A stretch of DNA of 64,000 bases from Candidatus Bathyarchaeota archaeon (GCA_963782525.1 CAWAKC010000001.1:448001-512000), one strand, 5' to 3'; positions 3,136 to 27,939 are shown, numbered from the stretch's first letter. Made by a program: numbers and translations. Notes: generated from the sequence alone by a model not told the origin.

Positions 3136-3163
3136 TTAATAAGCCTGACTCACTTATCGTGAG
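3136..3163 (-). promoter_or_regulatory. TATA-like box (3136-3142) plus palindrome CTCACTTATCGTGAG (3149-3163)
   Basis: Same motif and 6-bp spacing found at three other propeller promoters. Confidence 0.75.
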
Positions 3164-3562
3164 GAAAAAAAGCTAACTTAAGATACTGCAAACCTTCCAA
3201 ACGGTATCTCAATATAGAACAGTCAATTTGCGAATCCTTAACAGATAGTTTCACAGTTACATTGAAGGACGAGTATTTTTTTGTGCTAAGAATATCACTT
3301 GTTTTAACGTTATTATTAAATCAAAATTCCAGTTAGTCTCGAGGAATAATATCTTTTTTTATCTTTCCTACCTGCAAACACTGGTAATTCTAATTCACAG
3401 AAGTGCATAGCTCAACTTTACTGATTGGATGACTAAAACAAATTTTGATAAAAAGCGTACTTTTGCCTCAAAGGCTGAGAAGCGCGTGGGGCAGTTATAC
3501 AAGGAGAGAAAATCAAATATACACAAACTGCAGCTAATTCGCTAAATAGGAGGCATCCATAA

Positions 3563-4243
3563 ATCTCAGAACAGGTTTTCCTAGTCGCAGAAGAAACTTT
3601 TTCTTCACTCATCTGTTTCATTCTCGTATGGTTCTTAATAAAGCCATATCAGGTTACTAGAGAAAGTCGATATTTGGGGCTCCCCCTTGGATTTGGGTTT
3701 CTTGCCGCCTCCTATGCGTTTTCAGCTTTTGCACATTCGTATCCTACTTTTTCGATCAATCCTTTGGCATGGTTCCAACTCCTCTCACGTCCATTTGCTT
3801 TTGCATTTCTAGCGTTCACATATTATTTTGCCAAGAAAACTTCAACAAACACTCGACTAATCTGGGATGCAACATTAAGTTGTATGATCGTTGTTTTGAC
3901 AACCCTCTTTATTCTGTTTCTTGTCGCGCCAAAACTCGCTCTTGATAATTATCGCCTCTTAAGCATTTATGCCCGGGTTTTTGACATAGTCTGCCTGATC
4001 TACATCACTACCCATACAATCAGAAGTCACTTAGTAAGTCAAGATTCAAAAACAATATTGACGCCATTCGGATACATGCTTCTTGGAATAGGCCAATACT
4101 CATTGTTAATTTGGAATATAGGGGATATGAACAATAAATTTCCATTTTATGGAGGCTTGGCACTTCGTTGGATAGGATTGGTTCTTTTCCTCATAATTGC
4201 ATACCGAACCTTTTATGGGTCACAAAAAAGGATGTCTGAATGA
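3563..4243 (+). CDS. Polytopic (~7 TM) membrane protein, putative sensor, paralog A
   Basis: Homologous to 11432-12097 (LICFILV..IKPY..T.E.RYLGLPLGF). Homology extends upstream of the TTG at 3674 to an in-frame ATC at 3563, which has GGAGG at 3549-3553. Confidence 0.7.
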   Translation: MSEQVFLVAEETFSSLICFILVWFLIKPYQVTRESRYLGLPLGFGFLAASYAFSAFAHSYPTFSINPLAWFQLLSRPFAFAFLAFTYYFAKKTSTNTRLIWDATLSCMIVVLTTLFILFLVAPKLALDNYRLLSIYARVFDIVCLIYITTHTIRSHLVSQDSKTILTPFGYMLLGIGQYSLLIWNIGDMNNKFPFYGGLALRWIGLVLFLIIAYRTFYGSQKRMSE

Positions 4244-4521
4244 AGAAAAAAGCCAGAAGAAACAAAATGAAAATCTACGGAGACCTTTTGTCTATTATTA
4301 AGGCTGAAAAAAAGAGCGCAGACAGGATAGTTTTGACACGCATTCAGGCGAAAATGAATGTTCCCTTCGACCGTTTAAAAAACTACATTTCTGACTTAGA
4401 AGATCTCAAATTAATCGAAGACCAGCTTTCACTCAACCTCACTCAAAAAGGCAAACAATATCTAGATGAATATCAGAAAATCCTTGATTTCATGGAACGT
4501 ATGGGCATAGCCAACCGATAA
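4240..4521 (+). CDS. Small winged-HTH transcription regulator (HTH_45-like), paralog A
   Basis: RRNKMKIYGDLL...LTRIQAKMNVPFDRLKNY...LTQKGKQYL. ATGA overlap with the upstream gene. Confidence 0.8.
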   Translation: MKKKARRNKMKIYGDLLSIIKAEKKSADRIVLTRIQAKMNVPFDRLKNYISDLEDLKLIEDQLSLNLTQKGKQYLDEYQKILDFMERMGIANR

Positions 4522-5059
4522 AAACAATCGATAGTCTTGCATTGAAAGAATAATCACCGCATCTTTGCTATTAAAAAAGAGGGGCTGCTGAATCATTTCT
4601 CCGACTGAAGTGGATTAATTATCCCCTATGGTGCTGTGATAATCTCAGTGAAAATTGACCAAAATTGCTGGTTATTGAGGAAAATGGAAAAGGAAGATGA
4701 TTTTATAGCGCTAGAATAAGTTAGTCAATACGCGATTTTTTTTGGAGGCAGTTTCATAGTTCGATTTCAGGAAAAAGGGTTCGTTTTTTAAGATAACGCT
4801 ATTTTTTAATTCACGTTATTCTTGAATTATAATTAAAGCGGGAAATTTGACAACTTCATTTTATCCATTCTGATGGCAGATAATTTGAATTTTAAGTCAA
4901 AAAACAACTTCAGTGAAATTTTTCAAATGGATCGTGTCGCTAAATATTTATATACTTATTAAATAAAAATTAGAGCAATAGTACGCAATTAAATATACTT
5001 AAAGAATCTAAAAATAGTTTTACTTTTAAGCGATAAAGAGCTCACTTACAAATCTGCAG

Positions 5060-5338
5060 TTACTCAATAGTGTAAAGTGGTTGGGAAGGGTAGTTCTGTG
5101 TTTCAAAAGGCATTGATTTTGTTACACGAAGAATGCTAGTTGCAGGACCAGTAGTGATATATACGATTTCGACTTTAGGGAACTGCGTTTCTATTAATTC
5201 TTTAAGCTTATTAAGATCCTTTTCGTTCGCTTTAAGAATTAGTGCTCTCGGCTTGATCTTGTAAGAAGCTAAATCCAAACTAACTACTTGCGAAACGTCA
5301 CTATTTTGGGTACTTTCTTTGAGGTTTGACTCAACCAT
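5060..5338 (-). CDS. Small unknown protein, KIKPRA family, copy 1
   Basis: Paralogous to 14505-14810 and 20409-20714. Lies directly downstream of a propeller gene. Confidence 0.75.
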   Translation of the reverse strand: MVESNLKESTQNSDVSQVVSLDLASYKIKPRALILKANEKDLNKLKELIETQFPKVEIVYITTGPATSILRVTKSMPFETQNYPSQPLYTIE

Positions 5339-5409
5339 TTTCTTCCAGATCCTTTAATTTTTTGTTTTTTCCCATCAAAAAAAGGGATAAGGATGTTGTT
5401 TTTTGTTGT

Positions 5410-8070
5410 TTATGGCCGTTTTCTTAGGACAAGTATCGTAACAGCGAATCCAACGACGACTGCGAGGATTATGGCTATTCCGACGCCCATGATGTAGGTT
5501 TCAGTTGGTGGTAGAATAATTTCTGGGTACGGTGATGCTGTGGGCGCTGCGTTGCTGACACTCATGTAGGTTTGGGCTAAGGATGCACCGTAGGATGTTG
5601 AGCCGTGGAAGGTTGCGATGATCTTGTATGTTCCTGGAACTTGTGGTGTCCAGTCAAGACCGTAGACGCCTGTTAGGTCGCTTGTTGTGTCTCCAATGTG
5701 GATGTAGTTGCCGTTTGGATCGTATGCGTCTAAGGATACTGGTACTCCAGTTGCGTTTGTTGGCTTTGGTTGCTGTTTGAATAAGTATTCCATCCATGCT
5801 TGCATGCTGCCTTCGGACACTGCGGGTGTGCCTTTGAGTACAAAGTCTTCGCCGACGCCTTGGGCTTGAGTTAATGAGGGTACGGCGTAGTTTTCGTTCA
5901 GTTTACCTGAGGGGGTCTGGTCAGTAACAGTTCCGGTTAGGGTGACGCTGTTTCCGAGGGGTATGTCGATTTGTGGTGCTGATACTGTGGTTCCGGATTT
6001 TCCTTGTCCGTAGCAGTATAGGCAGTTGTCGTAGCTGTCTAAGCTTAGAACACGTCCGTCTGCGATGTATACGCCGGTACCTGCTGCCATGCCTGCTGAC
6101 CAATGGAGGATCTTCCATACTTCTGTTCCATCAGTTGCATTGATGCATCGTAGGTCTGATCCTCGCCAGAGTGGCTGGGTAGGTGAGTGTTCGCTGCTGG
6201 TACAATAGAGTTTGCCATCGGCGATTGCTGCGATACCGACTGGATAGTTTCCGTATGGTGATTCAAAGCCTTGGTCTTGTGCTGTGTACTGCCAAATGAT
6301 CTGTCCTGTGGTTATGTTATAGGCTGTGACTTGGCCACCGTAGCCGTAGCTGAAGAACATATGGTTATAGATGGCAGTGTCGTCTGCTGAACTTAAGCCG
6401 TAGAATTGCATTTGCGTTTCAGGTTGGCTTTCCCAGAGTTGTTGACCGGTTTTCAGGTCAAAGCCCCAGTACTGTCGGGTCATGTCTTGTCTGTAGATGA
6501 AGACGCCATCTTCAACGCTCATCGATTCGTACATCATGCCTGGTCTGGAACCGGCATATACCAAAGTGCTTGCTGCTTCTGGAGGAGTATAAGTTTCGTT
6601 CCATAGCAATGAGCCGATGGTTCCTTTGGTGGGGTCTAAGTTGAGTGCCCAGAAGTTGCCTTGCACTATTGTTGTTCCGTTGTTGCTGCCTGTTGTTCCG
6701 CCGACTACGTCTATGCCTTCTCGTACCCATCTGATGGTTCCTTGTACAGGAAGTGATCTTCCGCCTTGGCCGTCAAGGGTTACGTTCAGTGAGAAAGCTT
6801 GTCGTCCGTCATGTACTGCGTATTGTTGTGGTCGCCATTGCCAATAGTTGGTTCCGGTTGTGCCCAAGAGTTCAGAGGGGATAGCTGATGAGTTCCAGCA
6901 AGTTAGATACATTTTGCCGCCTGAGACCGAGTTGTTGTAGTATAGTATGCTTCCGTCGTGGCCGTAGACTTGCATTCCGCCAGTTGAAACGTTAGCGATT
7001 TTTGTGATTGTGTCAAAGGTGTAGCCGTCGAGACATTCCCAAGTTGACATTCCTGATCCAGTTGTAGAGCCCGTTGGGAGTGTTACGCCTGAAGTTCGCC
7101 AAAGGTAACTAAAACCGCCGTGCTGGTTAGGTGACTCATAATTGTATATTGATGCGAATGAGGGCATGACAGTGTTGTTGTATTGAGCCATTGTTTTTCC
7201 AGAGTACAGGTCGATGACCCACCAACCGTTGTTTCCATGTGCAGTGTTTCGGTCAGAAACAATGATTTTTCCGTTGAGGATAATCATGTTGCTGATGGAA
7301 AGTCCGCCGTAGTGCATTGTTTCATAGCCTATGTTGCCGTAGGCCTCATCCATGAGGCCGCCTGCGAAGTAGGGTCGTGACCACAAAATGTGTGGACTTT
7401 CTGGTCCAGGACCCATATTGTACTTTGTGTTTGGGGCGAGGTTGATTTGTGCGCCAGCTAGCCAGTTGGCTGAAAGTGTGTACCAGTCCCTGTTTGCACT
7501 GTAGATTGGTCGTGTCCAATAGTCATTTGGAAGCGGGGTTTCTGTCCATGCAGCGATTGGGTCTCGTTGTGCTTTAAGATTAACTGGGTCGCTAGTAGCT
7601 GGTCCGTAGGTATCATTGACATTATCATTTGCTATTGGAACTCCGTTCGCTGAAGGAAGCCCTGTCAATGTATATGCAGGCATGCGTGCTACAATGGTGT
7701 AGTTGCCCTCCTCAGTTGGAGTGAACATTGTATATGAACCGCCTACTGGATCGGAAGTCAATGGTCCTAAGGTTTGGTTGACACCGCTAGGTGAGGTAAT
7801 GTCTAAGTAGAAAATCCATCTGTCGCCATAACGGCTATCGGTGGATGCTGTGGGCATGACTGTGCCGCACCAGAAGGTGATTAGTGTTTCTTGTCCAACG
7901 CCTATGACATCTGGTGCAGCGGCTGCATAAACCCATACTTTATAGTTCACTGATGGATTGTGTGCTGCCGCATTTGGTAGAGCCGCAATTGGAATAATCA
8001 TAGCTAACATTAGAAACAACGCAATTATAGAGTAGGTTTTCTTTTTTGTCAGGTTGTTAGATAGTTTCAT
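5410..8070 (-). CDS. PQQ-like beta-propeller surface protein, paralog 2
   Basis: Same architecture as paralog 1 (YESPNQHG, SEHS, TM + LRKRP). Start moved from 8112 to 8070 because the TATA-like box lies at 8120-8126. Confidence 0.85.
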   Translation of the reverse strand: MKLSNNLTKKKTYSIIALFLMLAMIIPIAALPNAAAHNPSVNYKVWVYAAAAPDVIGVGQETLITFWCGTVMPTASTDSRYGDRWIFYLDITSPSGVNQTLGPLTSDPVGGSYTMFTPTEEGNYTIVARMPAYTLTGLPSANGVPIANDNVNDTYGPATSDPVNLKAQRDPIAAWTETPLPNDYWTRPIYSANRDWYTLSANWLAGAQINLAPNTKYNMGPGPESPHILWSRPYFAGGLMDEAYGNIGYETMHYGGLSISNMIILNGKIIVSDRNTAHGNNGWWVIDLYSGKTMAQYNNTVMPSFASIYNYESPNQHGGFSYLWRTSGVTLPTGSTTGSGMSTWECLDGYTFDTITKIANVSTGGMQVYGHDGSILYYNNSVSGGKMYLTCWNSSAIPSELLGTTGTNYWQWRPQQYAVHDGRQAFSLNVTLDGQGGRSLPVQGTIRWVREGIDVVGGTTGSNNGTTIVQGNFWALNLDPTKGTIGSLLWNETYTPPEAASTLVYAGSRPGMMYESMSVEDGVFIYRQDMTRQYWGFDLKTGQQLWESQPETQMQFYGLSSADDTAIYNHMFFSYGYGGQVTAYNITTGQIIWQYTAQDQGFESPYGNYPVGIAAIADGKLYCTSSEHSPTQPLWRGSDLRCINATDGTEVWKILHWSAGMAAGTGVYIADGRVLSLDSYDNCLYCYGQGKSGTTVSAPQIDIPLGNSVTLTGTVTDQTPSGKLNENYAVPSLTQAQGVGEDFVLKGTPAVSEGSMQAWMEYLFKQQPKPTNATGVPVSLDAYDPNGNYIHIGDTTSDLTGVYGLDWTPQVPGTYKIIATFHGSTSYGASLAQTYMSVSNAAPTASPYPEIILPPTETYIMGVGIAIILAVVVGFAVTILVLRKRP

Positions 8071-8119
8071 TTTTCTTTTTTCCTTTTTAGTTTGTGAACT
8101 ATCATTGCTCATGTTACAT

Positions 8120-8148
8120 CTAATAAGCTGAACTCACCGATCGTGAGT
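8120..8148 (-). promoter_or_regulatory. TATA-like box plus palindrome CTCACCGATCGTGAG (8133-8147)
   Basis: Conserved motif with the 6-bp spacer. Confidence 0.75.
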
Positions 8149-8488
8149 GCAAAAAAGTGCAAATTATTTCGAATTTTGTATTTGACTGATTTAATATAAT
8201 TAAATAAATAAGACAAAAAAAGAAGCAACTATTTTAGGAATTACGCGAGTAAAGTCCATGGCCTTATTCAAATAAGAACGAAAAGGATATTCTGAATGTG
8301 ATGAGTAGCTTAAGGGTTTGCTGGAGCTTTATTTAGGAACAGGAAAGAAAATGAAAGTACAAACCTACAAATCTAAATTGAACAATTTCCTGATATTTTC
8401 AACCCAATTTTCTACCTTTATTCTAAAATAATACGATTTTTTAACTAAAAATAAAAAAAGGGATGTAATTTTTTAGTTTACTTTAGCA

Positions 8489-11251
8489 TTATGGCCTTTT
8501 CCTCAGCAATAGCAGACCGACTATGGCTATTGAAATGATTATAGCAATCACTCCAACTGCCAAGTACATGATTATGTCTGTTGTTGTTGCAAGGTTTGTT
8601 TGGGGTGTAGTTGTTGGTGCATTTGTTGGTGCTGCTTCTACAACGCTCAGGTAGGTTTGCGCTAATGAACTGCTGTAGGCTTTGGAGCCATGGAATGTGG
8701 CGATTATCTGGTATGTTCCTGATATTTCGGGTTTCCAGTTGCATCCGTATGCGCCGGTTAAATCGCTTGTGACGCTGCCGATTTGAATATAGTTGCCGTT
8801 TGGATCAATAGCAGTTAATTCTACTGGGACACCGGTAGCGTTTGTTGGCTTTGCTTGGTTCTCGTATAGGTATTCCATCCATGGACCCATGCTTTCGTCG
8901 GATATCGCAGGTGTACCTTCAAGCGTGAAGTCATAGAGATTATTCATGTTGCGTCTGCCTGATTTTGTTTGATCAGTTACTGTACCGGTGATGGTTACGC
9001 TAGAGCCTAGTGTTGGATCAGCCTGCGGCGCGTTAACTGTTGTAGCACTTGTGCCTGGACCTATGCAGTATATTTGGTTGTCAAAGTAGTTTAGACCTAC
9101 AACTTTGCCATCGCCAAATTGCATGTATTGACCTGTGAGATGTGCACCGTTGTCAGCGCCCATGCCTAAAAGTGACCAGATTTCTGTTCCATCAGCTGCA
9201 CTGATGCAGCGTATGTTTGGTCCTCTGTACAAGGGTTGAGTAATTGAGTGCTCGCCTGTAAGAGTGTAGATTTTGTCATCGCAAATGGCAAAGATGTTAA
9301 TCGGGTAGTTGCCATAGGGTGATTCGCCGCCTTCGTTTGTAGCTGTGAAGTTCCATGCCTGTTGACCAGTGGATATATTGTAGGCAATGCATACTCCGCC
9401 ATATCCTGTTGTTAGAAGCAAGCCTTTGTAGTAGTTGATTTGAGTGCTGTAGTAGTTTTGGTCAGGTTCTCTTGCACTTTCCCAGAGCAATGCGCCTGTC
9501 TTCATGTCATAACCCCAGTATTTCAGTTGCTTTGTAGAGTGGAATAGTATTATGCCGTCTTCGGGATAAACGCCGCTTAAGGATAGGGTTGTGTCGTTTT
9601 GTGCAACTGATGCGTATGGCGCTGAAAATGGTGTAGTCCACAATTGTGTGCCTTCTTTGCCTCTTTCCAAGCTATAGCACCATAGTTGACCTTGTACATT
9701 TCCGAGTTCGTTGTTTTGTCCTTGTGTACCGACGATTACAAAGCCGCCTACACCGTTTGTGTCACCTACACGAACAGTTCTAATTGTACCGTTTTGGTTA
9801 AGGGGGCTTGGTCCCATTGGCGTGGCTATTGAGGCGTTCACTGAGAATCCGGTTGAACCATCCCAAACGTATGCATTGCTTAGTGCTGGTCCTCCTCCGA
9901 ATCCTCCGCCTTCAGGTCTCCATTGCCAGTAAGTTGTACCAGTGTTGGGTCCTGTTGCGGTTTCGCCGAGAACGTTAGTGTTGTTCCAGCATGTTAAGTA
10001 ATATTTTGGATTTGCGTTTGTTCCTTTGTTAACAAGGTTGTACCAGAGTAAGTCACCATTGTTGCCGACGACGTTTGTACCTGATGCGGATGCGTTAGCT
10101 ATGTAACATATGTGACGAAGCGGCAGTGAGTATCCATCAAGCATTTCTAAGACTGAGCCGTTAGCAGTACCAAGACTTGGACCAGCTCTCCACAAGAGTG
10201 GGTATATTCCGTGTTGGTTAGGTGACTCATATTTGTAGAGTTGACCATAAGATGGCATAGTATCGTTGAAGTATCCTAGTAACTCACCTGTGTTTAAGTC
10301 AACAACGTTAAAGCCAATTGATCTATAGGCGTCCGCGCGATCTGCATAGTAAACTCTGCCATTTAGAATTATCGAGTTGAAGTCCATTCCTTGATAGTGT
10401 CCAGTTATATAGCCGTAATCTCCGAATCGAGCTTCAACGTCGCCGCCGGCATATAGGCTTCTTGTCCATAGAATGTGGGATGTTTCTGTCCCAAGACCAT
10501 AAACAAAACGGGTCGTGGTACCGCCGGATTGTCCTGTAGGTTGATTCCAAGCGCCATTAAGCCAGTTTCCTCCAAGTTGGAAGCCCCAATTTCTTGCAGC
10601 GTTGTTTATTGGGCGTGTCCAGTAATCTTGCGGAACAGGGGATTCATTCCATGCCGGTATTGGATCTTGCTGTACAGTAAAAGTTACATCTTCGCTATTT
10701 CCTGCGGTGTACAATTGGCTTGTCGGAGTTGGGTAACCATATTGTTTTGGGGTCGACACGTAAGTTCCGTTAGCTGCCTGTATTAGAGTGCTGTTTTTCC
10801 ATTGTTCAGGGAAAATAGCTTTGACAGTGTATTGACCAACTTCTGTGGGTGAATATATCATGTATCCACCGCCAATTGAGTCTTGTTGACCCACTGCGAC
10901 CGGAACATTAGTAGTCACTCCACTTGGCGTTGTGATGTTAAATGATACACCACTCCACACGGCTCTATTGAAGGCACCTGCAGTTATGAGTTCAGTTTCT
11001 CCAGTGTCTGGCGGAATGTCAGCAGTCCAGTAAGCAAAGACTTCGTCCTGTCCAACGCCAATCAAATTACTAGATACACTGCAATATACGTAAGAGGTAT
11101 GAGTAATTACATTAGTAGGGTAAGCTTGAGCAGCATCAACAGTTGGCGCAAATGCGAGTGCACCAGCCATAGATGCTATTAGCAAAAGAATGATTACCGT
11201 AGCTGATATTTTGTTTTTTGAGAGTTTTGCTGTTTTATTTATAGAAGTCAT
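8489..11251 (-). CDS. PQQ-like beta-propeller surface protein, paralog 3
   Basis: Same architecture. Start placed at ATG 11251 (MTSINK), since the ORF-track start at 11317 overlaps the promoter. Confidence 0.85.
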   Translation of the reverse strand: MTSINKTAKLSKNKISATVIILLLIASMAGALAFAPTVDAAQAYPTNVITHTSYVYCSVSSNLIGVGQDEVFAYWTADIPPDTGETELITAGAFNRAVWSGVSFNITTPSGVTTNVPVAVGQQDSIGGGYMIYSPTEVGQYTVKAIFPEQWKNSTLIQAANGTYVSTPKQYGYPTPTSQLYTAGNSEDVTFTVQQDPIPAWNESPVPQDYWTRPINNAARNWGFQLGGNWLNGAWNQPTGQSGGTTTRFVYGLGTETSHILWTRSLYAGGDVEARFGDYGYITGHYQGMDFNSIILNGRVYYADRADAYRSIGFNVVDLNTGELLGYFNDTMPSYGQLYKYESPNQHGIYPLLWRAGPSLGTANGSVLEMLDGYSLPLRHICYIANASASGTNVVGNNGDLLWYNLVNKGTNANPKYYLTCWNNTNVLGETATGPNTGTTYWQWRPEGGGFGGGPALSNAYVWDGSTGFSVNASIATPMGPSPLNQNGTIRTVRVGDTNGVGGFVIVGTQGQNNELGNVQGQLWCYSLERGKEGTQLWTTPFSAPYASVAQNDTTLSLSGVYPEDGIILFHSTKQLKYWGYDMKTGALLWESAREPDQNYYSTQINYYKGLLLTTGYGGVCIAYNISTGQQAWNFTATNEGGESPYGNYPINIFAICDDKIYTLTGEHSITQPLYRGPNIRCISAADGTEIWSLLGMGADNGAHLTGQYMQFGDGKVVGLNYFDNQIYCIGPGTSATTVNAPQADPTLGSSVTITGTVTDQTKSGRRNMNNLYDFTLEGTPAISDESMGPWMEYLYENQAKPTNATGVPVELTAIDPNGNYIQIGSVTSDLTGAYGCNWKPEISGTYQIIATFHGSKAYSSSLAQTYLSVVEAAPTNAPTTTPQTNLATTTDIIMYLAVGVIAIIISIAIVGLLLLRKRP

Positions 11252-11303
11252 TTTGTTTTTTTCTCTTCCTTTTAATTTGTAATAACAAACCCAGGAGTTA
11301 GAG

Positions 11304-11332
11304 CTAATAAACCACACTCACCTATCGTGAGT
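11304..11332 (-). promoter_or_regulatory. TATA-like box plus palindrome CTCACCTATCGTGAG (11317-11331)
   Basis: Conserved motif with the 6-bp spacer. Confidence 0.75.
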
Positions 11333-11431
11333 ACCAAAAAATGAAAACGTTTCTCTTTGAATTGAAAGATTACAATTTAGTCATTTCTCAAGAGAAAACA
11401 AAATAAACACAAGTTGAAGTAGATTAGAATT

Positions 11432-12097
11432 ATGTACCAAGAAGCGCGGGTCATAGTAGAAGTTGTATCGGCAATCATTTGCTTCATTCTTGTAAGATAC
11501 ATGATAAAACCATATTCGTTTACAAAAGAAGGCCGCTATCTTGGTTTACCTTTGGGGTTTACTTTTCTTGGTGCATCATACATTATTTCAGCCCTTGCAT
11601 ACACCGAACTTTATCATTTCTCTGACTTCCTATGGATTCAACTACTTGTAAGGACATTCGCATTTGTGTTCCTAGCAGTGACGTATTACTTTTCTAAGAA
11701 ACCTTCAAAAAATACCCGGCAGTTATGGGATATAACTCTTAGTTTGTTAATCGTTAGTGTATTTGCTTTGTTTCTGGTGACTTTTATATTTCCGCAAATT
11801 GCGTCAGATGCATATCTTGAAAGCCAAGTGTATATTAGAGTTTTTATCGTAATTTGCCTCTCTTACATCGCTATCCATACACTTAGAGGTCACATAAAGA
11901 ATCCAGATCCAACAACAATTTGGGTTCCAATGGGTTATATTCTTCTGGCAATAAGCCAATATTCACTTTTATTCTGGTATCTTGACAATAGCTTAGCTGC
12001 CTTTACAGGTTCCTTGGTACTTCGTTTAATGGCGTTAGTAATTTTTCTGGTAGTAACCTATCTTTCATTCAAAGAAAATAAAAGGAAGGGAAAATGA
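11432..12097 (+). CDS. Polytopic (~7 TM) membrane protein, putative sensor, paralog B
   Basis: About 7 hydrophobic segments, no kinase domain. Paralog of 3563-4243. Confidence 0.8.
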   Translation: MYQEARVIVEVVSAIICFILVRYMIKPYSFTKEGRYLGLPLGFTFLGASYIISALAYTELYHFSDFLWIQLLVRTFAFVFLAVTYYFSKKPSKNTRQLWDITLSLLIVSVFALFLVTFIFPQIASDAYLESQVYIRVFIVICLSYIAIHTLRGHIKNPDPTTIWVPMGYILLAISQYSLLFWYLDNSLAAFTGSLVLRLMALVIFLVVTYLSFKENKRKGK

Positions 12098-12372
12098 AAA
12101 AGATTTCACGGAGAGATAAACTGAAGATTTATGGCGACCTATTGTCTGTTCTTAAGGATAAAGCTAACAATGAAAACATAGTGTTAACTCAAGTTCAGGT
12201 ACGAATTAATGTGCCTTTCGATCGCTTAAAAAAATACATTTCTGAGATTAAGGAACTGGGATTAATTCAAGATGAGACCACACTTGTACTTACCGAAAAA
12301 GGCAAACAATACCTAAGTGAATACGAGAGCGTTCTCGAGTTTATGAAGCGTATGGGTATTACTTACCAATAG
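12094..12372 (+). CDS. Small winged-HTH regulator (HTH_45-like), paralog B
   Basis: RRDKLKIYGDLL...NVPFDRLKKY...LTEKGKQYL. 4-bp overlap with the upstream gene. Confidence 0.8.
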   Translation: MKKISRRDKLKIYGDLLSVLKDKANNENIVLTQVQVRINVPFDRLKKYISEIKELGLIQDETTLVLTEKGKQYLSEYESVLEFMKRMGITYQ

Positions 12373-12523
12373 AGAAAACATAACCAAACAGATAATCAAC
12401 ATTGTTTTTCATCATCGATGAATTTTTCAAGTTGGAGCAGAAAAAACTAAAATCACTTTTTTAATTAAAGTATATTGCCGTTCAGTCAAAGAAAAACAGT
12501 TTAGAAAAAGTAAGTTTGGTGGT

Positions 12524-17984: not shown

Positions 17985-18076
17985 TTAAAAAAAGGAAAAC
18001 TTATTTCATGTATCGTTAACAGATATAAACAAAAAAAGACCCTATTTCTCGTAAAGGAATACTGTATATGTGAAAT

Positions 18077-18972: not shown

Positions 18973-19009
18973 GGGGAAACCTCAAAAAATTTTCTTTTTT
19001 TAATTAAGG

Positions 19010-19791
19010 ATGATTTACGTTTTGACAGAACCTAGCCTAACTAGAAAATGTGTTGCAGAGTTTATTGGAACATTCATTTTAGTTTATGTTGGTGCAGGAG
19101 CAGCGGCAATAACAATTTTGCTCGCAAACGGAGAATCATCCAAATCCAGCTTCATGTCAAGCGGCATAGGCGCTCTTGGAGGCTTAGCCGATTGGCTCTC
19201 AATAGGCTTAGCTTTTGCTTTTGCAATCGCCGGAGCATTCTACATTTTTGGGCACATATCAGGATGCCACATTAACCCAGCCGTAACCATCGCGTTGTGG
19301 TCGGTGAAAAGGCTGCCTGGAAGAGATGTTGGTCCCTACATTATTTCTCAGATAGCAGGCGCTACAGTAGCAAGCATATCCTTTGTTGGCATTGTTGGTA
19401 CCCGTGCAGCAATGATTGGGGGAAGTGGTGCAACTGCTCTATTACCGGGCATAAGCTATTTGCAGGGACTTTTTAATGAAATAGTAATTTCGTTTATCCT
19501 TATGCTTGTCATAATGGCTTTAGCGGTTTATGAACGGGGATCAAAACCGGCTTAATCATTGGTCTAGTAGTAGCTGCGGGAATAACGACCACTGGCAACA
19601 TTTCAGGTGCCTCGTTTAACCCCGCAAGAACTTTTGGGCCTTATGTTGCAAATTCCTTGTTTGGTGGACCGAATTTTTGGATCCAGTTTCCCATTTATGT
19701 TATTGGACCGATAATTGGAGCGTTACTTGCAGCGTTTGCATATACTTTCTTGACTCAATCAAAAACAGACAAACATACACAACTTTTTTGA
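19010..19791 (+). pseudogene. aqpM: Frameshifted MIP-family aquaporin (AqpM-like)
   Basis: First NPA (SGCHINPA) is in the annotated ORF. After a shift near 19550, GLIIGLVV...SFNPARTFGPY continues in another frame to TGA 19791. Confidence 0.85.
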
Positions 19792-20287: not shown

Positions 20288-20365
20288 GGGCCGGTCGTCT
20301 AGCCTGGTTAGGACGTTGGCTTTACGAGCCAAAGGTCGCCGGTCCGAGTCCGGCTCGGCCCACCA
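20288..20365 (+). tRNA. tRNA-Val(TAC), intronless, encoded CCA
   Basis: Acceptor stem GGGCCGG/TCGGCCC, anticodon arm TTGGC-TTTACGA-GCCAA, T arm GCCGG-TCCGAGT-CCGGC (atypical T-loop). Confidence 0.85.
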
Positions 20366-20408
20366 CAAATTAATAATTGACATTAACAATTAGGCTTAAA
20401 AAATTTAG

Positions 20409-20714
20409 TTATTCAACAGTGTAAAGTGGTTGTGCGGAAGGTTTCTGAGTTTTGAAGGGCATTTATTTGGTTACGCGAAGGATACTTGCTGTTGGACCGC
20501 TAGTAACATAGATGATTTCGACCTTGGGAAATTGTGTTTCTATTAATTCTTTAATTTGATGAAGGTCCTTGTCGTTTGCCTTAAGTATGATTGCTCTCGG
20601 CTTGATCTTTTTTGAACAAGCCATTTCCGAACACAGGGGAACCTCTTGAGTTTTTGACATGACTTCAAATTTGGTTACCTCACCGAAAGACGGTTCAACC
20701 TTGATTTTGTCCAT
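20409..20714 (-). pseudogene. KIKPRA family copy 3 with a premature TAA (20463-20465)
   Basis: Reads LRVTK*MPFKTQKPSAQPLYTVE, versus LRVTKSMPFETQNYPSQPLYTIE in copy 1. Could still be a functional truncated protein. Confidence 0.7.
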
Positions 20715-20792
20715 GGAGTTCAGCCTTTTTTCAGTGTTAATTTACAAACATTATGAAAAAAAATAAAAAGGGAATGGATTTTTTACTGATTC

Positions 20793-23714: not shown

Positions 23715-23821
23715 TTGTTTTTTTCTCCTTTTAACCTATTCTCTCACATAAGTCTTGCTCATATATAATATTTTTTAATTTTGGCTTCAAAGCTCAAATA
23801 TTTTTTAAATAGTGCATTAAC

Positions 23822-23836
23822 GTGGAAATATTCCAC
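23822..23836. promoter_or_regulatory. Palindrome GTGGAA-ATA-TTCCAC between divergent genes
   Basis: Perfect 6-bp inverted repeat between paralog 5 and the Lrp/AsnC gene. Confidence 0.45.
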
Positions 23837-23975
23837 TACAAACGTTATCAAAACGTATTCAATAACTCAATCACAGCCACAAATAAAACAGATAATGCTG
23901 TTAAATTTATGACGATAGTTTACTTGGCAATTACAAGATAATGATATTAACAACAAACAAGTAAAAAGACCGAAG

Positions 23976-24950
23976 ATGACAACTAAAATAGATTCACTAA
24001 ATCTCAAAATTCTTAAAGATTTACTCAGTGAAGGAAGAAAACCATTTGCTGAAATTGCTGAGGAAAACAATGTCTCTAAAGAAGTTGTTTCAAAAAGGTT
24101 CAAGCAACTAAAAGCGAAGGGAATAATTTTAGGATTCACCACACAAAATAGTGTCAGATGCTATGGCGCCAGCTTTGTTTCAAACATTTTTATTCACGTT
24201 GAACATGGCGGAGTGGAAAATGTCATCAAAGAGTTGAAGAAAATACATAACGTGACCCAGGCTTATCCCTTGGCAGTGGAACAAAAAGTAATAACCGACG
24301 TTACTTTTAAAAACATAGAGGAAGTAGAATCTACTAAAAAAATAATACAGAGAATATCAGGCGTTCTGAGAACTGACATTACAATTTGGACTGGATTCAG
24401 AAACACTCCAGAAAACTTATCTTTTTTCAACCATGAAGATGTAGTCGGCACAGAAACAGTTGAAAAAAGTGACTTCATTAAAAGAAAAACAGGCATAGAA
24501 ATCGATGCGATTGACAAAGTCATCGTAGACAAGCTGTCGTTAAATGGCCGTATGCCCTTTGCAGATATTGCTAACCCGCTTGGAGTATCAATTGAAACCA
24601 TAGCACGAAGGTATGAAAAACTCAAGCAAAACGGCGACCTAAAAGTGGTTGTCCAAATAGACCCCACCAAACTAGGATATTATGCCTTTGGTAGATTCAC
24701 CTTTTCTTTTCGCCAGGAAGCTTTAGAGGGCAACCTGAAAATAATCTCCAAGCTTCTTGATGTGAATAGAATTACCAAATCTGCTGGCTTTCATGATTTA
24801 AGATTCACGTTAATGATAAGAGATATCAATCATTTCATAAAAGTGCAAGATGAGATGCTTCTTTTGCCCAATGTAACTAAAATAGAGACTAGTATAACAA
24901 AAATGCTTTGTCCTTGGCCTATGCAAAGAGAATTTATTTCAACATTTTAG
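23976..24950 (+). CDS. Tandem-duplicated Lrp/AsnC-family regulator
   Basis: Two HTH + RAM units (IDSLNLKIL..EGRKPFAEIA; IDAIDKVIV..NGRMPFADIA). Confidence 0.85.
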   Translation: MTTKIDSLNLKILKDLLSEGRKPFAEIAEENNVSKEVVSKRFKQLKAKGIILGFTTQNSVRCYGASFVSNIFIHVEHGGVENVIKELKKIHNVTQAYPLAVEQKVITDVTFKNIEEVESTKKIIQRISGVLRTDITIWTGFRNTPENLSFFNHEDVVGTETVEKSDFIKRKTGIEIDAIDKVIVDKLSLNGRMPFADIANPLGVSIETIARRYEKLKQNGDLKVVVQIDPTKLGYYAFGRFTFSFRQEALEGNLKIISKLLDVNRITKSAGFHDLRFTLMIRDINHFIKVQDEMLLLPNVTKIETSITKMLCPWPMQREFISTF

Positions 24951-25053
24951 TACTTCAATATGCTCCAATTTTCAACTAGCTATCATTCATTGAATAACGA
25001 CCACTTTTTTCTTCTACAAACAGTCCATGAATTCATCTAAAATCAGCCTATCC

Positions 25054-25092
25054 GCCAAAAATCGCCCATCCGAGCCCGCCTCACCCACCACA
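25054..25092 (+). repeat. Degenerate 3' half of tRNA-Val (att-like remnant)
   Basis: gccaaaaatcgcccatccgagcccgcctcacccaccaca versus tRNA gccaaaggtcgccggtccgagtccggctcggcccaccaca. Confidence 0.65.
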
Positions 25093-25149
25093 TTTTAACT
25101 AAAGGAGCTTGATTTTGAACTTATTTGGGGGTAATGATGTATTTGCTCA

Positions 25150-25287
25150 CAAGGACGAAGGGTTTGCTGGGCTCTGTTAAGGGAAAAAGAGGAAGAATAG
25201 GAACAAACCCCTGCTCCACGCAGCAGCTTCGATCTACGTTGAGGTTTAACAGAGCACTCTCAGCCCCTCATAGACTTCTTCGTTTGT
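25150..25287. ncRNA. Candidate structured RNA / nested inverted-repeat element
   Basis: Nested stems: ACGAAG/CTTCGT, GCTCTGTTAA (25171-80)/TTAACAGAGC (25246-55), CTGCT/AGCAG. Confidence 0.35.
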
Positions 25288-25343
25288 TGTTAATTTGAAA
25301 AAAATAAGAAAAAAGGAAGATTGATGTTGGTTTTTTGGTTTTC

Positions 25344-27842
25344 TTATGGTCGCTTTCTAAGCATCAATGCAATCAGTACAATCCCGATTATGATCACTAT
25401 CAGGATTAATGCAATTGATACCGGCAGGAAGTATGTGTCAGCCATCGATGCGGGTGGTTGTTGTGTGGGTGTCGGCGTTGATATTGGGTTGGCAATCGTG
25501 AAGCTTGTTCCACCGCTTGAGGAATAGTATGATTCAGTTCCGCCAAAGGTAGCTGTGACTCTGTATAGACCGGATATTGCTGGTGCGGGCCATGAGAATG
25601 CATAATTGCCTAGGCTGTCACTTGTCGTTGTTCCTATTGGGATTATGTTTCCGTTAGGGTCAATTGCGGTTAAGGTTACGGTAACGCCTGTTGCATTGGT
25701 TGGCTTTGGTTGTTGCATATAGAGGTATTGCATCCATGCTGTCATGCTATCATCGGATACTGCGGGAGTACCTGCTGCGGGAGTATTGAAGGCGGTTTGT
25801 CCGGGTGACTGATCAGTTACTGTACCTTGAATGAGAACATCAGAACCGATGGTTGAAGGCAGTGTTGGCGCAGTCACGGTTGTTGCTGTTTGTCCTTTAC
25901 TGAAACAGTAGAGTTTTCCGTCGTAATTGTTGTAGGTTACTAAACTATTGTAGGCGACGATTGGAGCGGGCATGAATCCTTCTATGCTCCATATCTGGGT
26001 TCCATTCATTGCGTCAAAGCAGTAGAGTCGTTCGTTTGGATACAAGGCTGAGTTTGGACTGTGCTCGTTAGTAGCGGCATATACTTTTCCGTCGGCGACG
26101 ATTGGTGCTCCGTAGAATGGCGATTGACCATATGGTTCCGTAAAGCCAGTGCTTCCAGTAGACCCAAACCACATCAAGTTTCCGTTTGTCATGTTATACG
26201 CATGGACACCATCGTATCCTGAACTGTATAGTACACCGTTAGCAACTGTTGGGTTTCCGGCGCCTGCACCCATGTAACTTTGACTGTAAAAGCCCCATGA
26301 ATTGTTGTAGGCTGCGGTTGGTCCCCAGATTTTCTGTCCTGTCAGAGCATTGTAGCCGTACCATTGTGTTGTGGCTTGGTTAAAGTATGCAAAGACGCCG
26401 TTTTGGATTGGGCTGAAATTGTATTGTGGACGACTGGTGAAGAATGGACTAATCGTGTAATTCCACATTTGATGCCCATCTTTTGCGCTGTAACCCATAA
26501 CTACGACGTATGGTGTAGATGCAGTGGCGTTAGCTACTGCGGTTAATAAAACGTCAGGGCTGATGGTTATCAAGGATTGCCCAGCTACTGTAGGTATTGT
26601 TGTGTTCCATTGAATGCCCTTTCGCCACTCGTATGTTCCAGCTAGGGGTCGCCATTCACCGTTTTTGTTTCCCGGTTCACTGTAGATTTGCATGCCGTTA
26701 GCGACAAAGGCCTGTGTTGAATTCCACATAGCGATATAACTGGCAGTTACCAGATAGACCAGCATTTCACCATGTCCACCCATTATTATTCTACCTGATG
26801 ATGCGTTAGCGAAACTTGTTATTAGGTTGCCTGAGAATGGGTCATAACATCGGTAAGTTGATCCTGTTTGCCATAAGTACGGAATGACTCCTGCTTGGTT
26901 AGGTGATTCGTAGTCGTAGAGTTGACCCAAAGTTAGAGTGATGTTTTGCCACCATACCTGTTTGCCAGTAGCTAAATTAACGCATACAGCGCCTGCACCG
27001 TTCACATTGTTTGAGAGCGGCAAGTTGTAGAATAAGAGTCCGTCCATGATGATTCCAACGCCATTCCATTTTGGTTCGTATGAAAGGCCTGTGTAGTAGT
27101 CCGTGTCGTTAAATACTCCGCCCACCATACCTGCAATTGCCAGAGGTTGAGTCCAAGCAATATGAGCACTATTGGGTGCTATTGTGTACGGGTTGAAGGC
27201 TCCAAGATCAGCTGCATAACCGGTTCCAAACTGCAGTGGTATGCTAAGCCAGTTTCCTGAAATGGTGTTCCAAAAACTGTTTGCGCCTTGTATAGGTGCT
27301 GACCAATAGTCACCAGGCATGGGCAACGCTGTCTCTGGGTAGAAGGGTATAGGTTCTTGCTGTACTGTGACAGATACGCTTTGAGATAAGCTTGGTTGAT
27401 AATAGACTGAAAATGAGGTTGCGCTAGGCCCGGTTACTGTTGAGCTCACGTTTATGTATTGACCCGGGAAGCTGAATTGGAAGGAATAAACTCCTGCTGT
27501 CGTTGGGGTAAACGCTGAGTAGGCTGTTCCAATATCATCTGAACTTAATGGACCTATTGTTTGGTTGCTTCCATCAGGCAGGGTTACTGTCACTTGATAG
27601 CCTTGAAAATCTACGCTTGTTCCTGTTTTGTCAAATGGAGGTATTTCGGCAAGCCACATTACAACAAATAGTTGTTGGCCAACTCCAATTGGACTTGGGG
27701 TTGCACTGACAAATGCATGGGTAGCTGCGGGAACTGAACTTTGTTGAGCTTGAACACTTGTCGTTAGAGGCAAGGCAATTGCCAATATCAGAAGGAAAGT
27801 GATCATAGTAGCCATAGTTTTGGTTTTTCGCATTTCAATCAT
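25344..27842 (-). CDS. PQQ-like beta-propeller surface protein, paralog 6 (832 aa)
   Basis: Same architecture. YESPNQAG, NEHS, TM + LRKRP. Confidence 0.85.
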   Translation of the reverse strand: MIEMRKTKTMATMITFLLILAIALPLTTSVQAQQSSVPAATHAFVSATPSPIGVGQQLFVVMWLAEIPPFDKTGTSVDFQGYQVTVTLPDGSNQTIGPLSSDDIGTAYSAFTPTTAGVYSFQFSFPGQYINVSSTVTGPSATSFSVYYQPSLSQSVSVTVQQEPIPFYPETALPMPGDYWSAPIQGANSFWNTISGNWLSIPLQFGTGYAADLGAFNPYTIAPNSAHIAWTQPLAIAGMVGGVFNDTDYYTGLSYEPKWNGVGIIMDGLLFYNLPLSNNVNGAGAVCVNLATGKQVWWQNITLTLGQLYDYESPNQAGVIPYLWQTGSTYRCYDPFSGNLITSFANASSGRIIMGGHGEMLVYLVTASYIAMWNSTQAFVANGMQIYSEPGNKNGEWRPLAGTYEWRKGIQWNTTIPTVAGQSLITISPDVLLTAVANATASTPYVVVMGYSAKDGHQMWNYTISPFFTSRPQYNFSPIQNGVFAYFNQATTQWYGYNALTGQKIWGPTAAYNNSWGFYSQSYMGAGAGNPTVANGVLYSSGYDGVHAYNMTNGNLMWFGSTGSTGFTEPYGQSPFYGAPIVADGKVYAATNEHSPNSALYPNERLYCFDAMNGTQIWSIEGFMPAPIVAYNSLVTYNNYDGKLYCFSKGQTATTVTAPTLPSTIGSDVLIQGTVTDQSPGQTAFNTPAAGTPAVSDDSMTAWMQYLYMQQPKPTNATGVTVTLTAIDPNGNIIPIGTTTSDSLGNYAFSWPAPAISGLYRVTATFGGTESYYSSSGGTSFTIANPISTPTPTQQPPASMADTYFLPVSIALILIVIIIGIVLIALMLRKRP

Positions 27843-27910
27843 TTTTTTTTCTCCATTAGATATTTTTCTTTTTCTCCAATTTCATGGATAAAGTAAACAG
27901 CCCCAAACCG

Positions 27911-27939
27911 CTATTAAGACTTTCTCACCTATTGCGAGT
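27911..27939 (-). promoter_or_regulatory. TATA-like box plus palindrome CTCACCTATTGCGAG (27924-27938)
   Basis: Conserved motif (one arm mismatch) with the 6-bp spacer. Confidence 0.7.

Follow-up and report, generated by a model that had tools for sequence, protein, structure and literature searches.

Four promoters in the 64,000-nucleotide window, by which we mean the whole stretch of Candidatus Bathyarchaeota DNA analysed here, carry the palindrome CTCAC-N5-G(T/C)GAG beside a TATA-like box, which raises the question of what reads this element and to what effect. The first-pass annotation had placed the motif at four sites, and these are confirmed: the pattern CTCACNNNNNGYGAG gives seven strand-matches at exactly four places in the window, whereas shuffled sequence averages 0.14 matches with never more than 2 (0 of 100 shuffles reach 7). 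The genome-wide search proposed there finds CTCAC-N5-G(T/C)GAG at only six places in 2,867,851 bases (2.87 Mb), all with the same promoter geometry; the two outside the window, C1:316900 and C3:130335, were absent from that annotation. Compared with CTCACGATAGGTGAG, the genome has two places with no mismatch, three with one and four with two, one of the last being operator copy 4 of the window and the other three lacking T-tract or TATA context. The window elements are as follows.

3149..3163, minus strand, operator copy 1, CTCACGATAAGTGAG, in the promoter of propeller paralog 1
3143-3148, minus strand, spacer tcaggc between operator 1 and the TATA-like box, at the BRE position
3137..3142, minus strand, TATA-like box TTATTA, 6 bp downstream of operator 1
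3165..3171, minus strand, T-tract directly upstream of operator 1, at a position conserved in the 55-site logo
8133..8147, minus strand, operator copy 2, CTCACGATCGGTGAG
8121..8126, minus strand, TATA-like box TTATTA, promoter 2
8151-8156, minus strand, T-run upstream of operator 2
11317..11331, minus strand, operator copy 3, CTCACGATAGGTGAG, in the intergenic region that separates paralog 3 from a divergent 7TM-wHTH operon
11305..11310, minus strand, TATA-like box TTATTA, promoter 3
11336-11341, minus strand, T-run upstream of operator 3
27924..27938, minus strand, operator copy 4, variant CTCGCAATAGGTGAG
27912..27917, minus strand, TATA-like box TTAATA, promoter 4
27941-27949, minus strand, weaker T-run upstream of operator 4

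On the minus strand, each window copy has a T-run before it and, after a 6-bp gap, TTATTA (three copies) or TTAATA (one), as had been described. The distance from the operator end to a TTATTA-like box is 6 bp at six of six genome sites, counting TTAAAT at C1:316900 as such a box, and of 28 distinct sites sampled without regard to a TATA box, 18 match TTATTA in at least five of six positions at this offset. The earlier claim that the motif is selected within otherwise dissimilar DNA also holds, since between pairs of the six genome sites (15 pairs) the core is 0.90 identical, the T-tract 0.63 and the spacer plus TATA box 0.53, vs 0.32 and 0.35 for the flanks, where composition predicts 0.29. 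The conserved island measures 36 bp, comprising the T-tract, the core CTCACGATAGGTGAG, TGAGGC and TTATTA, with flanks at background identity. Because the spacer G-A-T-A-G/A/C is conserved, the putative site is a 15-bp oriented near-palindrome, not two bare half-sites. The asymmetry of this spacer and the conservation of the T-tract are unaccounted for by a reading as wHTH operator.

All six genome operators lie 60-110 nt upstream of a gene for a PQQ_2 beta-propeller with a signal peptide, four of them in the window.

553..3087, minus strand, paralog 1, PQQ_2 propeller with signal peptide and Ig-like C-terminus, 844 aa
5410..8070, minus strand, paralog 2, PQQ_2 propeller, likely start ATG at 8070
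8489..11251, minus strand, paralog 3, PQQ_2 propeller, likely start ATG at 11251
25344..27842, minus strand, paralog 6, PQQ_2 propeller, 832 aa

The longest ORF of paralog 2 extends to 8112, leaving just 9 nt to the TATA box, and that of paralog 3 starts at a GTG at 11317, overlapping the operator; the ATGs at 8070 and 11251, each preceded by a Shine-Dalgarno-like AGGA, are the likely starts. The six window paralogs scanned score 30.7-54.9 bits with PQQ_2 (PF13360; cut-off 27.6), and a seventh (32046-34937) matches paralog 1 at E 3e-111. The K-rich and hydrophobic N-terminal leaders of the propeller paralogs were judged by eye to be signal peptides. RNA-library contigs match coding parts of paralogs 2 and 3 (those of paralog 2 at 100% identity); they cover the coding parts of these two target genes only and cannot show transcription starts. 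Expansions of secreted PQQ_2-type proteins are reported in Bathy-6 genomes (PMC11697101, in excerpt).

The propeller family has 32 full-length paralogs in the genome, six of which bear the operator; paralogs 4, 5 and 7 (14887-17508, 20793-23714 and 32046-34937) have no upstream match at up to 3 mismatches, in line with the first-pass annotation. As these genes are paralogs in tandem arrays, and relatives often have sites spaced at about 3 kb along a single contig, the block could be a functionless promoter remnant of duplicated genes, inherited passively or spread by gene conversion. We consider this extremely improbable, given the highly identical core between background flanks, and also because the operator is kept across genera and in a second family before unrelated genes, and five genome places lie within one mismatch of the 15-mer, where by our own estimate about 0.25 are expected. 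The bearers, moreover, are scattered on the paralog tree, with 5 changes needed for 6 rows (158 of 500 shuffles score as low) and protein branch lengths of 0.15-0.8, and therefore the site is not a leftover of one recent duplication. Occurrence on a scattered 6 of 32 paralogs at a fixed 6-bp TATA offset supports the regulon that had been proposed.

Two of the six operators in this genome adjoin an operon coding for a seven-helix membrane protein (7TM) and a wHTH regulator.

3674..4243, plus strand, 7TM membrane protein of regulator operon 1, 189-aa ORF from the first canonical start
4240..4521, plus strand, wHTH regulator 1, 93 aa, HTH_45
11392..11407, plus strand, GAGAAAACAAAATAAA, consensus-like BRE/TATA that precedes the 7TM start codon by about 25 nt (coordinates obtained by counting)
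11432..12097, plus strand, 7TM membrane protein, 221 aa, first gene of regulator operon 2
12094..12372, plus strand, wHTH regulator 2, 92 aa, HTH_45, Sso10a/AF1382-like

The two regulators are 58% identical, have the same recognition helix and match Pfam HTH_45 (PF14947) at 42.1 and 45.2 bits (gathering cut-off 25.5), and the distant wHTH partners at loci L077 and L080 match it at 33.3 and 28.1 bits. Membership in the NCBIfam Sso10a_fam (NF053610) was rejected, at 38.1 and 31.7 bits vs a curated cut-off of 60; judged by sequence, the wHTH is related to this subfamily and lies outside it. A profile search matches 1r7j at E 0.058, and the AF2 model (pLDDT 75.6; helices 9-24, 31-38, 42-54 and 68-87) finds 2qvo, 1r7j and 4hw0 with Foldseek at TM 0.66-0.69 and E 0.02-0.06. 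The predicted fold is Sso10a-like, a wHTH plus a long C-terminal helix, and the Sso10a/AF1382 proteins (1r7j, 4hw0, 2qvo) share with it a length of about 90-95 aa, this helix and a TM of about 0.69 over the full length. Work on Sso10a proteins has dealt mainly with their role as architectural chromatin proteins (PMC4941522, in excerpt), and this role of the nearest solved relatives counts against reading the wHTH as a specific-operator protein. Unlike them, the wHTH here appears to recognise a putative specific site, to serve a local regulon and to be encoded invariably next to a membrane-protein gene.

The partner gene of operon 2 overlaps the wHTH start by 4 bp, and its 221-aa product is modelled with seven helices (pLDDT 82.9). 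In operon 1, homology to helix 1 runs in frame upstream to about 3575 without ATG, GTG or TTG, and the 189-aa form is also found in relatives. MASE3 (PF17159) membership of the 221-aa protein was rejected (24.7 bits; gathering cut-off 31), MASE3 gave no match for the 189-aa ORF, NF047874 scored 24.9 bits against a cut-off of 560 (E 8e-6), and the Atlas lead was HisKA_7TM at 0.81. The protein resembles the MASE3/HisKA_7TM sensor domains of histidine kinases in being a seven-helix membrane domain, but it falls below every curated cut-off of models of this type and, unlike those kinases, stands alone, with no kinase or output domain; a search for longer fused relatives found none, a weak indication. 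The predicted 7TM-wHTH complex scores 0.53 (best control 0.00), with runs agreeing in at least 78% of contacts and a partner pLDDT of at least 68. Among 80 solved complexes 58 attained this mark, as did 2 of 110 mismatched pairs; at or below 0.60, however, only 7 of the 80 solved complexes passed, together with both mismatches that passed at all; the model lends weak support to the pairing.

Comparison with relatives, which the annotation had suggested, finds the motif co-occurring with the wHTH operon in two Bathyarchaeia families. Throughout the genus the 7TM gene adjoins the wHTH gene in 30 of 30 wHTH loci; that every such operon is led by the 7TM gene, with the wHTH gene in second place, was absent from the annotation. 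The operator lies directly upstream of the operon at 25 of these 30 loci (admitting up to one half-site mismatch), two more having degenerate remnants, and at 9 of 9 wHTH loci from four other genera and the second family. Among 120 genomes of the genus, 58 have both motif and wHTH, 2 the motif only, 14 the wHTH only and 46 neither, counted with a pattern that required the 6-bp spacing and gave 1 control hit; genomes within the genus are kin, and such 2x2 counts overstate independence. The 14 have no strict site, some of them having variant sites, and 119 of the 120 genomes encode the propeller family. In the second family (60 genomes) the corresponding numbers are 5, 1, 1 and 53, and the genes behind the operator encode a Kelch propeller, AIM24-like, MscS-like and other signal-peptide proteins, so that the operator follows the regulator and not the propeller gene. 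In relatives, operator-6 bp-TATA precedes the 7TM-wHTH operon itself, and some loci read TATA-6-operator-6-TATA in both directions, an arrangement that the annotation had not recorded.

A real operator might nevertheless be read by another, unlinked transcription factor, the 7TM-wHTH operon being one more member of its regulon. Three genomes with promoter-like sites would suit this, namely G103 (91% complete; no wHTH by profile at E 0.001), G129 (64% complete; only a weak paralog match) and G429 (93% complete; wHTH not detected), as would the operon adjoining just two of six sites in this genome. We nonetheless find it improbable in view of the patchy co-occurrence in both families, of an operator that keeps adjoining the operon while the target genes change, and of the recognition helix VPFDRLKxY, invariant in 28 wHTH sequences, just as the half-sites are invariant. 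No other regulator gene was seen consistently in the loci, with ORFs listed for L073-L076 only and just three families annotated in the wHTH loci compared. Co-occurrence and adjacency thus favour the earlier assignment to the wHTH, and the site, its geometry, the selection on it and its linkage to the operon are borne out by sequence and comparison.

The centres of the two 5-bp half-sites are separated by 10 bp, a spacing suited to a single dimer on one DNA face, and with the operator stopping 6 bp short of the TATA box a bound dimer would abut the place where TFB reads the BRE. At that position the site logo reads T-G-A-G-G/T-C. By inspection this looks like a non-consensus BRE, TGAGGC instead of the GAAA type: tRNA promoters of the same genome have TTATTA/TTTAAAT-type boxes behind GAAA-type BREs, and the regulator operon's proximal promoter likewise has a GAAA-type BRE. 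In operon 2 this promoter is, on its predicted elements, GAGAAAACAAAATAAA, a block kept in relatives (L029-L033, L082, L051 and L043). The regulator operons here seem to use their own proximal promoters, at about 60 nt (operon 2) and more than 400 nt (operon 1) from the operator, and therefore autoregulation is not evident in this genome.

With fixed TATA spacing and a BRE position semi-conserved as TGAGGC, the block might instead be a specialised core-promoter element, an extended unusual BRE read by one of the TFB paralogs, of which the genome has about four (nine matched cyclin-repeat stretches). This seems very improbable, as the single HTH of TFB does not fit a 15-bp palindrome whose half-sites are spaced by 10 bp, whereas a dimer does, the block is found facing either way and also flanked by two divergent TATA boxes, and the co-occurrence with the wHTH operon would be left unexplained.

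If the wHTH is the reader, it could instead act as a MarR/TetR-like local repressor with negative autoregulation. Its dimer would keep TFB off the BRE, on both sides where the site has two flanking TATA boxes, until a signal relayed by the 7TM protein lifts the block. Repressors classically have a divergent regulator operon with their palindrome placed between the two promoters, and the symmetric loci, the contact of the BRE position with the proximal half-site, the many MarR-type repressors among the wHTH fold matches and the known repressors that hinder TFB or TBP at promoters (PMC5512572, in excerpt) point the same way. We regard repression as rather doubtful, since an operator wholly upstream of BRE/TATA occupies the usual activator position (PMC5512572, excerpted text), and a promoter that is only repressed would be expected to be strong, whereas the BRE here looks non-consensus beside those of the tRNA and operon proximal promoters. 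The exact 6-bp spacing at more than 100 sites hints weakly at contact over occlusion, as the spacing was preset in that pattern and the unbiased figure is the 18 of 28. Of the two, activation by recruiting TFB has a modest edge.

We found no description of this operator/regulator system in the literature searched. A specific site at a fixed distance upstream of BRE/TATA, the mark of an archaeal upstream activating site, is present here. Excerpts of PMC5512572 describe TFB-RF1 (PF1088), the ara-box factor and Ptr2 as binding directly upstream of the BRE and recruiting TFB or TBP to sub-optimal core promoters, activation being lost when a strong BRE is put in; these belong to protein families other than the wHTH, none of them is known to act on the operator described here, and activation here is suggested by position only. 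The EarA sites of archaellum promoters (Methanococcus, Thermococcales) are also short and specific and lie directly upstream of, or at a fixed distance from, the BRE, and EarA is an activator thought to aid TFB at a weak BRE (PMC5512572; PMC10665913, both in excerpt). Its sites, however, are 6-8-bp direct repeats of the TACATA type instead of a 15-bp palindrome, its target is the archaellum operon instead of propeller genes, and the excerpts of these two papers describe no membrane partner, whereas the wHTH here has a 7TM partner gene.

MarR/TetR-style regulators share the dimeric wHTH (presumed here), the palindromic operator and the divergent intergenic region, and their own-operon control is paralleled in relatives' 7TM-wHTH loci. 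They differ in having their own ligand pocket, where the wHTH is co-translated with a 7TM protein, and an operator over the start site instead of upstream of BRE/TATA; MarR Pfam models match neither wHTH at E 0.01, so the likeness is at fold level only. Bacterial ECF sigma/anti-sigma pairs likewise combine a small DNA-binding specificity factor with a membrane protein encoded on the same transcript; the factor is often under its own control and governs envelope or secreted-protein genes close by. This is a functional analogy to the 7TM-wHTH pair with no homology, and an ECF sigma factor reads the promoter -35/-10, whereas the archaeal wHTH would read a putative upstream operator in a TBP/TFB host.

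Taken together, we think it reasonably probable that the near-palindrome is the operator of a wHTH dimer that likely activates a subset of PQQ propeller genes, with the 7TM protein as sensor. An Sso10a/HTH_45-type dimer from 4240-4521 and 12094-12372 would read the operator and, to judge from its position, most likely help TFB and TBP onto weak promoters, switching on a chosen 6 of 32 secreted PQQ-type propeller genes and, in relatives, its own operon as well; the 7TM protein would probably sense an extracellular cue and control the wHTH.

The putative operator, the near-palindrome CTCAC-N5-G(T/C)GAG, occurs in the window at exactly the four places reported in the first-pass annotation (3149-3163, 8133-8147, 11317-11331 and 27924-27938) and at no others. 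The pattern gives seven strand-matches, because the half-sites of three copies are perfectly palindromic and match on both strands; dinucleotide-preserving shuffles (n = 100) gave a mean of 0.14 and a maximum of 2, none of the 100 reaching seven. The layout described there was also recovered: on the - strand each of the four copies is preceded by a run of T and followed, after 6 bp, by a TATA-like box.

3137-3142, - strand: TATA-like box TTATTA, 6 bp after an operator copy
8121-8126, - strand: TATA-like box TTATTA, 6 bp after an operator copy
11305-11310, - strand: TATA-like box TTATTA, 6 bp after an operator copy
27912-27917, - strand: TATA-like box TTAATA, 6 bp after an operator copy

The 5-bp centre is likewise conserved (GATAA, GATCG, GATAG and AATAG in the window copies), so that the operator can be described as an oriented 15-mer with the consensus CTCACGATAGGTGAG. 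In the whole genome (2.87 Mb, 12 contigs; the window is C1:448001-512000), the degenerate pattern is found at only six places, those outside the window being at positions 316900 of contig C1 and 130335 of contig C3. The 15-mer consensus occurs without mismatch at two places, with one mismatch at three and with two mismatches at four, one of the last being the fourth window site and the other three having no T-tract or TATA context. All six genomic sites face a paralog of the secreted PQQ_2 beta-propeller family and lie 60-110 nt 5' of its start codon. A TATA-like box follows 6 bp further on; at C1:316900 it can be read either as TTAAAT (offset 6) or as ATATTA (offset 3). The three window paralogs said to be devoid of the motif do lack it.

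Among the six promoters of the genome (15 pairs), mean pairwise identity is 0.90 in the core, 0.63 in the T-tract and 0.53 in the spacer plus TATA box, falling to 0.32 in the upstream flank and 0.35 in the downstream flank, with 0.29 expected from composition. In a logo of 55 distinct sites from loci of many species, where the half-site columns were the selection criterion and the other columns were not, information is confined to positions -8 to +28 and is about zero on either side, in the order TTTTTTG(T/C)A, core, T-G-A-G-G/T-C and TTATTA(G). The motif-bearing paralogs are unclustered on a quick maximum-likelihood tree (IQ-TREE) of the 32 paralogs, the six bearers requiring five changes against a shuffled mean of 5.6, with 158 of 500 shuffles as low. 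Judged from these alignments, the conservation of the operator points to selection and not to common descent. Within the genus, the T-tract TTTTTTG(T/C)A (3164-3172, 8148-8156 and 11332-11341 in the window) is conserved; in a second family of the order it is absent.

The spacing was assessed without circularity by means of a strict core pattern that is silent on the TATA box. Of 41 related genomes, 13 contain this pattern, 11 of them belonging to the 24 other genomes of the genus, and a control pattern gave one match. Eighteen of the 28 distinct sites in those loci have at least five of the six positions of TTATTA at exactly offset 6 (15 of them exact), one orthologous group of four sites has ATATTA at offset 3, and the sole strict-core match outside the family lies in a coding-like context with no box. 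By inspection, regions upstream of tRNA genes in the source genome carry TTATTA-type boxes behind GAAA-type BREs; the box type being common to tRNA promoters, it is credible that the operator-linked box is a TATA box. Where a BRE would lie, the 6 bp separating operator and box have a non-consensus sequence. Were the T-tract the true TATA box, the operator would lie between TATA and start site, an arrangement we judged unlikely, since CTTATTAG agrees with the TATA boxes of tRNA promoters and the second family keeps the 6-bp offset with varied TATA-like boxes and no T-tract.

The genes behind the four window sites encode products of 830-940 aa with a lysine-rich and hydrophobic N-terminal leader, a PQQ_2 beta-propeller match of 30.7-54.9 bits (cut-off 27.6) and, at the C-terminus, Ig-like matches. 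Besides fragments, 32 full-length members of the family (at least 800 aa) are encoded in the genome. Secreted PQQ-domain propellers are described as the most expanded gene family of the Bathyarchaeia, with expansions known in Bathy-6 genomes and a proposed role in electron transfer with lignin or humic substances (PMC11697101); that paper contains neither 'promoter' nor 'transcription factor', and the choice among paralogs is not addressed in it. For paralogs 2 and 3, the longest ORF runs into the promoter (8071-8112 and 11252-11317, the latter overlapping the operator). Translation more probably starts at the ATGs at 8070 and 11251, each preceded by an AGGA-rich leader, and thus automatic gene calls there may be too long. 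Public metatranscriptome contigs (Logan) compared with positions 2600-12400 gave matches in four RNA-library runs, which cover only coding parts of the genes at 5410-8070 and 8489-11251 (paralogs 2 and 3); the promoters and the regulator operon have no contig coverage in these four runs. Two runs (X6 and X7) match at 100% identity with identical pieces and are probably one data set, and the two others (X9 and X11) are 92-97% alike and therefore come from relatives; such contigs are blind to starts, strand and level.

Several propeller paralogs have a hairpin in the 5' leader, directly before a Shine-Dalgarno-like AGGAG. The one at C1:316944-317011, outside the window (L007:1545-1612 in our locus set), has the stem UUGGCAAAUAA...UUAUUUGUCAA and a minimum free energy of -14 kcal/mol (z -3.04, 1 of 200 shuffles as good); it is kept in three orthologues (L012, L021 and L022), and comparable stems lie 5' of the paralogs at C3:378878 and C9:79233. 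It could act on translation or stability, independently of the operator. Other genes in the window include the following.

19010-19555, + strand: short MIP (aquaporin-family) ORF, matching profile positions 3-156 of 222 only
23976-24950, + strand: tandem double AsnC/Lrp-type regulator, 324 aa
28130-29023, + strand: N6/N4 DNA methyltransferase gene (PF01555, E 1.3e-47), divergent from the fourth operator copy

The candidate regulators are the winged-helix (wHTH) proteins encoded at 4240-4521 and 12094-12372, which match Pfam HTH_45 at 42.1 and 45.2 bits (cut-off 25.5). Both genes stand second in a pair: there is a 4-bp overlap between the wHTH start and the stop of the preceding gene, which encodes a membrane protein (7TM; 3674-4243 and 11432-12097). 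Against NCBIfam Sso10a_fam the wHTH scores 38.1 bits, under the cut-off of 60, so that its family is related to Sso10a yet falls below the cut-off of that subfamily. A plain PDB sequence search with one wHTH returned nothing useful; a profile match to 1r7j was obtained at E 0.058, and the AF2 model (pLDDT 75.6) aligns over its full length with AF1382, Sso10a and Sso10a-2 at a TM-score of about 0.69 with weak E-values. The predicted recognition helix, VPFDRLKxY, does not vary in an alignment of 28 wHTH sequences, and the half-sites are likewise invariant.

The 7TM protein has seven predicted helices (AF2 pLDDT 82.9), shows only sub-threshold likeness to MASE3-type sensor domains and falls in unnamed archaeal clusters of the ESM Atlas. 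Foldseek with its model returned only generic seven-helix bundles (GPCRs and rhodopsins; E 0.019 or higher, TM 0.4-0.6), which we do not take as kinship, and a weak search for fused forms among longer proteins gave none. A 197-codon frame at C3:196620-197200, outside the window, joins the C-terminal half of a 7TM in frame to a wHTH, but the C-terminus of the wHTH is frameshifted and the frame was rejected as a natural fusion; it is a decayed third copy of the module, with no operator nearby (best half-site match with two mismatches, ~600 nt upstream). The 189-aa 7TM ORF starts at a TTG (3674) and is preceded by about 30 in-frame codons (3575-3674) that show homology to helix 1 in the 221-aa paralog and contain no ATG, GTG or TTG. 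The same 189-aa form is found in three relatives (L018, L025 and L033). Either translation initiates at a non-canonical codon or the protein no longer has helix 1.

The operator is linked to this gene pair. Thirty loci surrounding wHTH relatives, drawn from various species of the genus, were compared. The 7TM gene adjoins the wHTH in all 30, and most have a divergent propeller gene. In 25, the operon is immediately preceded by a site with no more than one half-site mismatch; the remaining five comprise two degenerate remnants, one locus cut by a contig end and two with none. Among 120 genomes of the genus, the wHTH was detected in 72 (E 1e-10), the motif plus TATA-like box in 60 (control, one match) and the propeller family in 119. 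A hand tally of these genomes, which are kin and thus do not give independent events, has 58 with both wHTH and motif, 14 with the wHTH only, two with the motif only and 46 with neither. Variant sites are present in several genomes of the wHTH-only group; in the motif-only genomes, a wHTH profile search was negative for G103 (91% complete) and gave no more than a weak paralog match for G129 (64% complete).

The 7TM-wHTH pair extends to four further genera of the family and to the second family, and all nine loci examined there have a site directly upstream of the operon. Of 60 genomes of the second family, six have the wHTH and six the strict motif (control pattern, one match): five have both, one (73% complete) the wHTH only, one (G429) the motif only, in a good promoter-like context, and 53 neither. 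The genes behind these sites are not PQQ propellers; they encode a secreted Kelch propeller, AIM24-like proteins, an MscS-like membrane protein and other signal-peptide proteins. The targets change and the site stays with the operon, which is the strongest argument that the wHTH, rather than an unlinked factor, would be the reader of the operator. Upstream of five distant pairs from a third family (L077-L081), CTCAC-N5-GTGAG was found in none, and no shared alternative palindrome was seen by eye.

Three promoter arrangements occur in the relatives. That of the window has the operator, 6 bp and TATA box towards the target gene only; the second has them towards the 7TM-wHTH operon (for example at L043:1442, L051:1822 and in the second family); and in the third, TATA-like boxes lie 6 bp off both sides of an operator between divergent genes (L004, L015, L054, L058 and L075). 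The orientation of the spacer is independent of the direction in which the site acts, which is what a symmetric dimer would predict. Although the site works in both directions, its asymmetric centre G-A-T-A-G is strongly conserved. The second operon of the window has a proximal, consensus-like promoter of its own, GAGAAAACAAAATAAA (11392-11407), ~25 nt before the 7TM ATG and 60 nt from the operator, a block conserved at the same place in L029-L033, L082, L051 and L043. It looks like a consensus BRE plus TATA box giving a leaderless or near-leaderless regulator mRNA, in contrast with the non-consensus BRE of the operator-bearing promoters. Given this promoter, and the more than 400 nt that separate the first operon from the nearest operator site, autoregulation is not evident in the source genome. 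This genome has about four TFB-like genes with nine TFIIB cyclin-repeat matches (C1:539212, C11:26299, C11:153094, C3:333305 and C3:53556), one of them apparently split over two frames (C3:333305-333854).

The half-sites, 10 bp apart, would fit one wHTH dimer on one face of the DNA, whose end would then lie 6 bp from the TATA box, beside the place where TFB reads the BRE. Archaeal activators are typically described as binding upstream of the BRE and recruiting TFB or TBP, and repressors as binding over the promoter or downstream; sites of EarA in Thermococcales are reported at a fixed distance from the BRE (PMC10665913). On the position of the operator upstream of a non-consensus BRE, we consider activation somewhat the more probable outcome of binding. 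Repression by the same wHTH at the same site has a smaller though substantial chance of being correct, and an arrangement of divergent operons is just as characteristic of local repressors. The 7TM may be the sensor and controller of the wHTH, as suggested by the strict gene pairing, the translational coupling and a weak complex score. The predicted 7TM-wHTH complex scored 0.53 against 0.00 for the best control. Of 80 solved complexes, 58 reached the mark, as did 2 of 110 mismatched pairs; at scores up to 0.60, however, only seven of the 80 solved complexes passed, along with both passing mismatches. With at least 78% contact agreement between runs and a partner pLDDT of at least 68, the prediction lends the pairing weak backing.

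Taken jointly, the 7TM and the 92-aa wHTH could form a kinase-free transmembrane signalling device that chooses among the propeller paralogs, a reading we regard as speculative and on balance improbable. In it, the 7TM would hold or modify the wHTH until an extracellular cue arrives (e.g., lignin- or humic-derived substrates), and the dimer, once freed, would bring TFB to the BRE-poor promoters that flank one palindrome on both sides. Several sensor-regulator pairs per genome would share one common operator and jointly decide which few of ~30 secreted PQQ-type paralogs are made, so that in logic the device would be an archaeal counterpart of the ECF sigma/anti-sigma pairs.

An archaeal operator beside the BRE and TATA box with a local regulator is already known; what is new is the regulon, its regulator pair and a geometry that serves both directions. 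A literature search with four variants of the 15-mer returned no occurrence, one on a Bathyarchaeia regulon or TATA box gave, among the matches listed, none with the word Bathyarchaeia, and HTH_45 was met only in an unrelated context in the literature searched. The Bathyarchaeia are abundant and almost uncultured, and the operator, the candidate regulator and the candidate membrane sensor together provide a testable set. Proteins of the Sso10a/HTH_45 type thereby gain a plausible role as sequence-specific regulators, possibly within an archaeal signalling scheme that would need no kinase.
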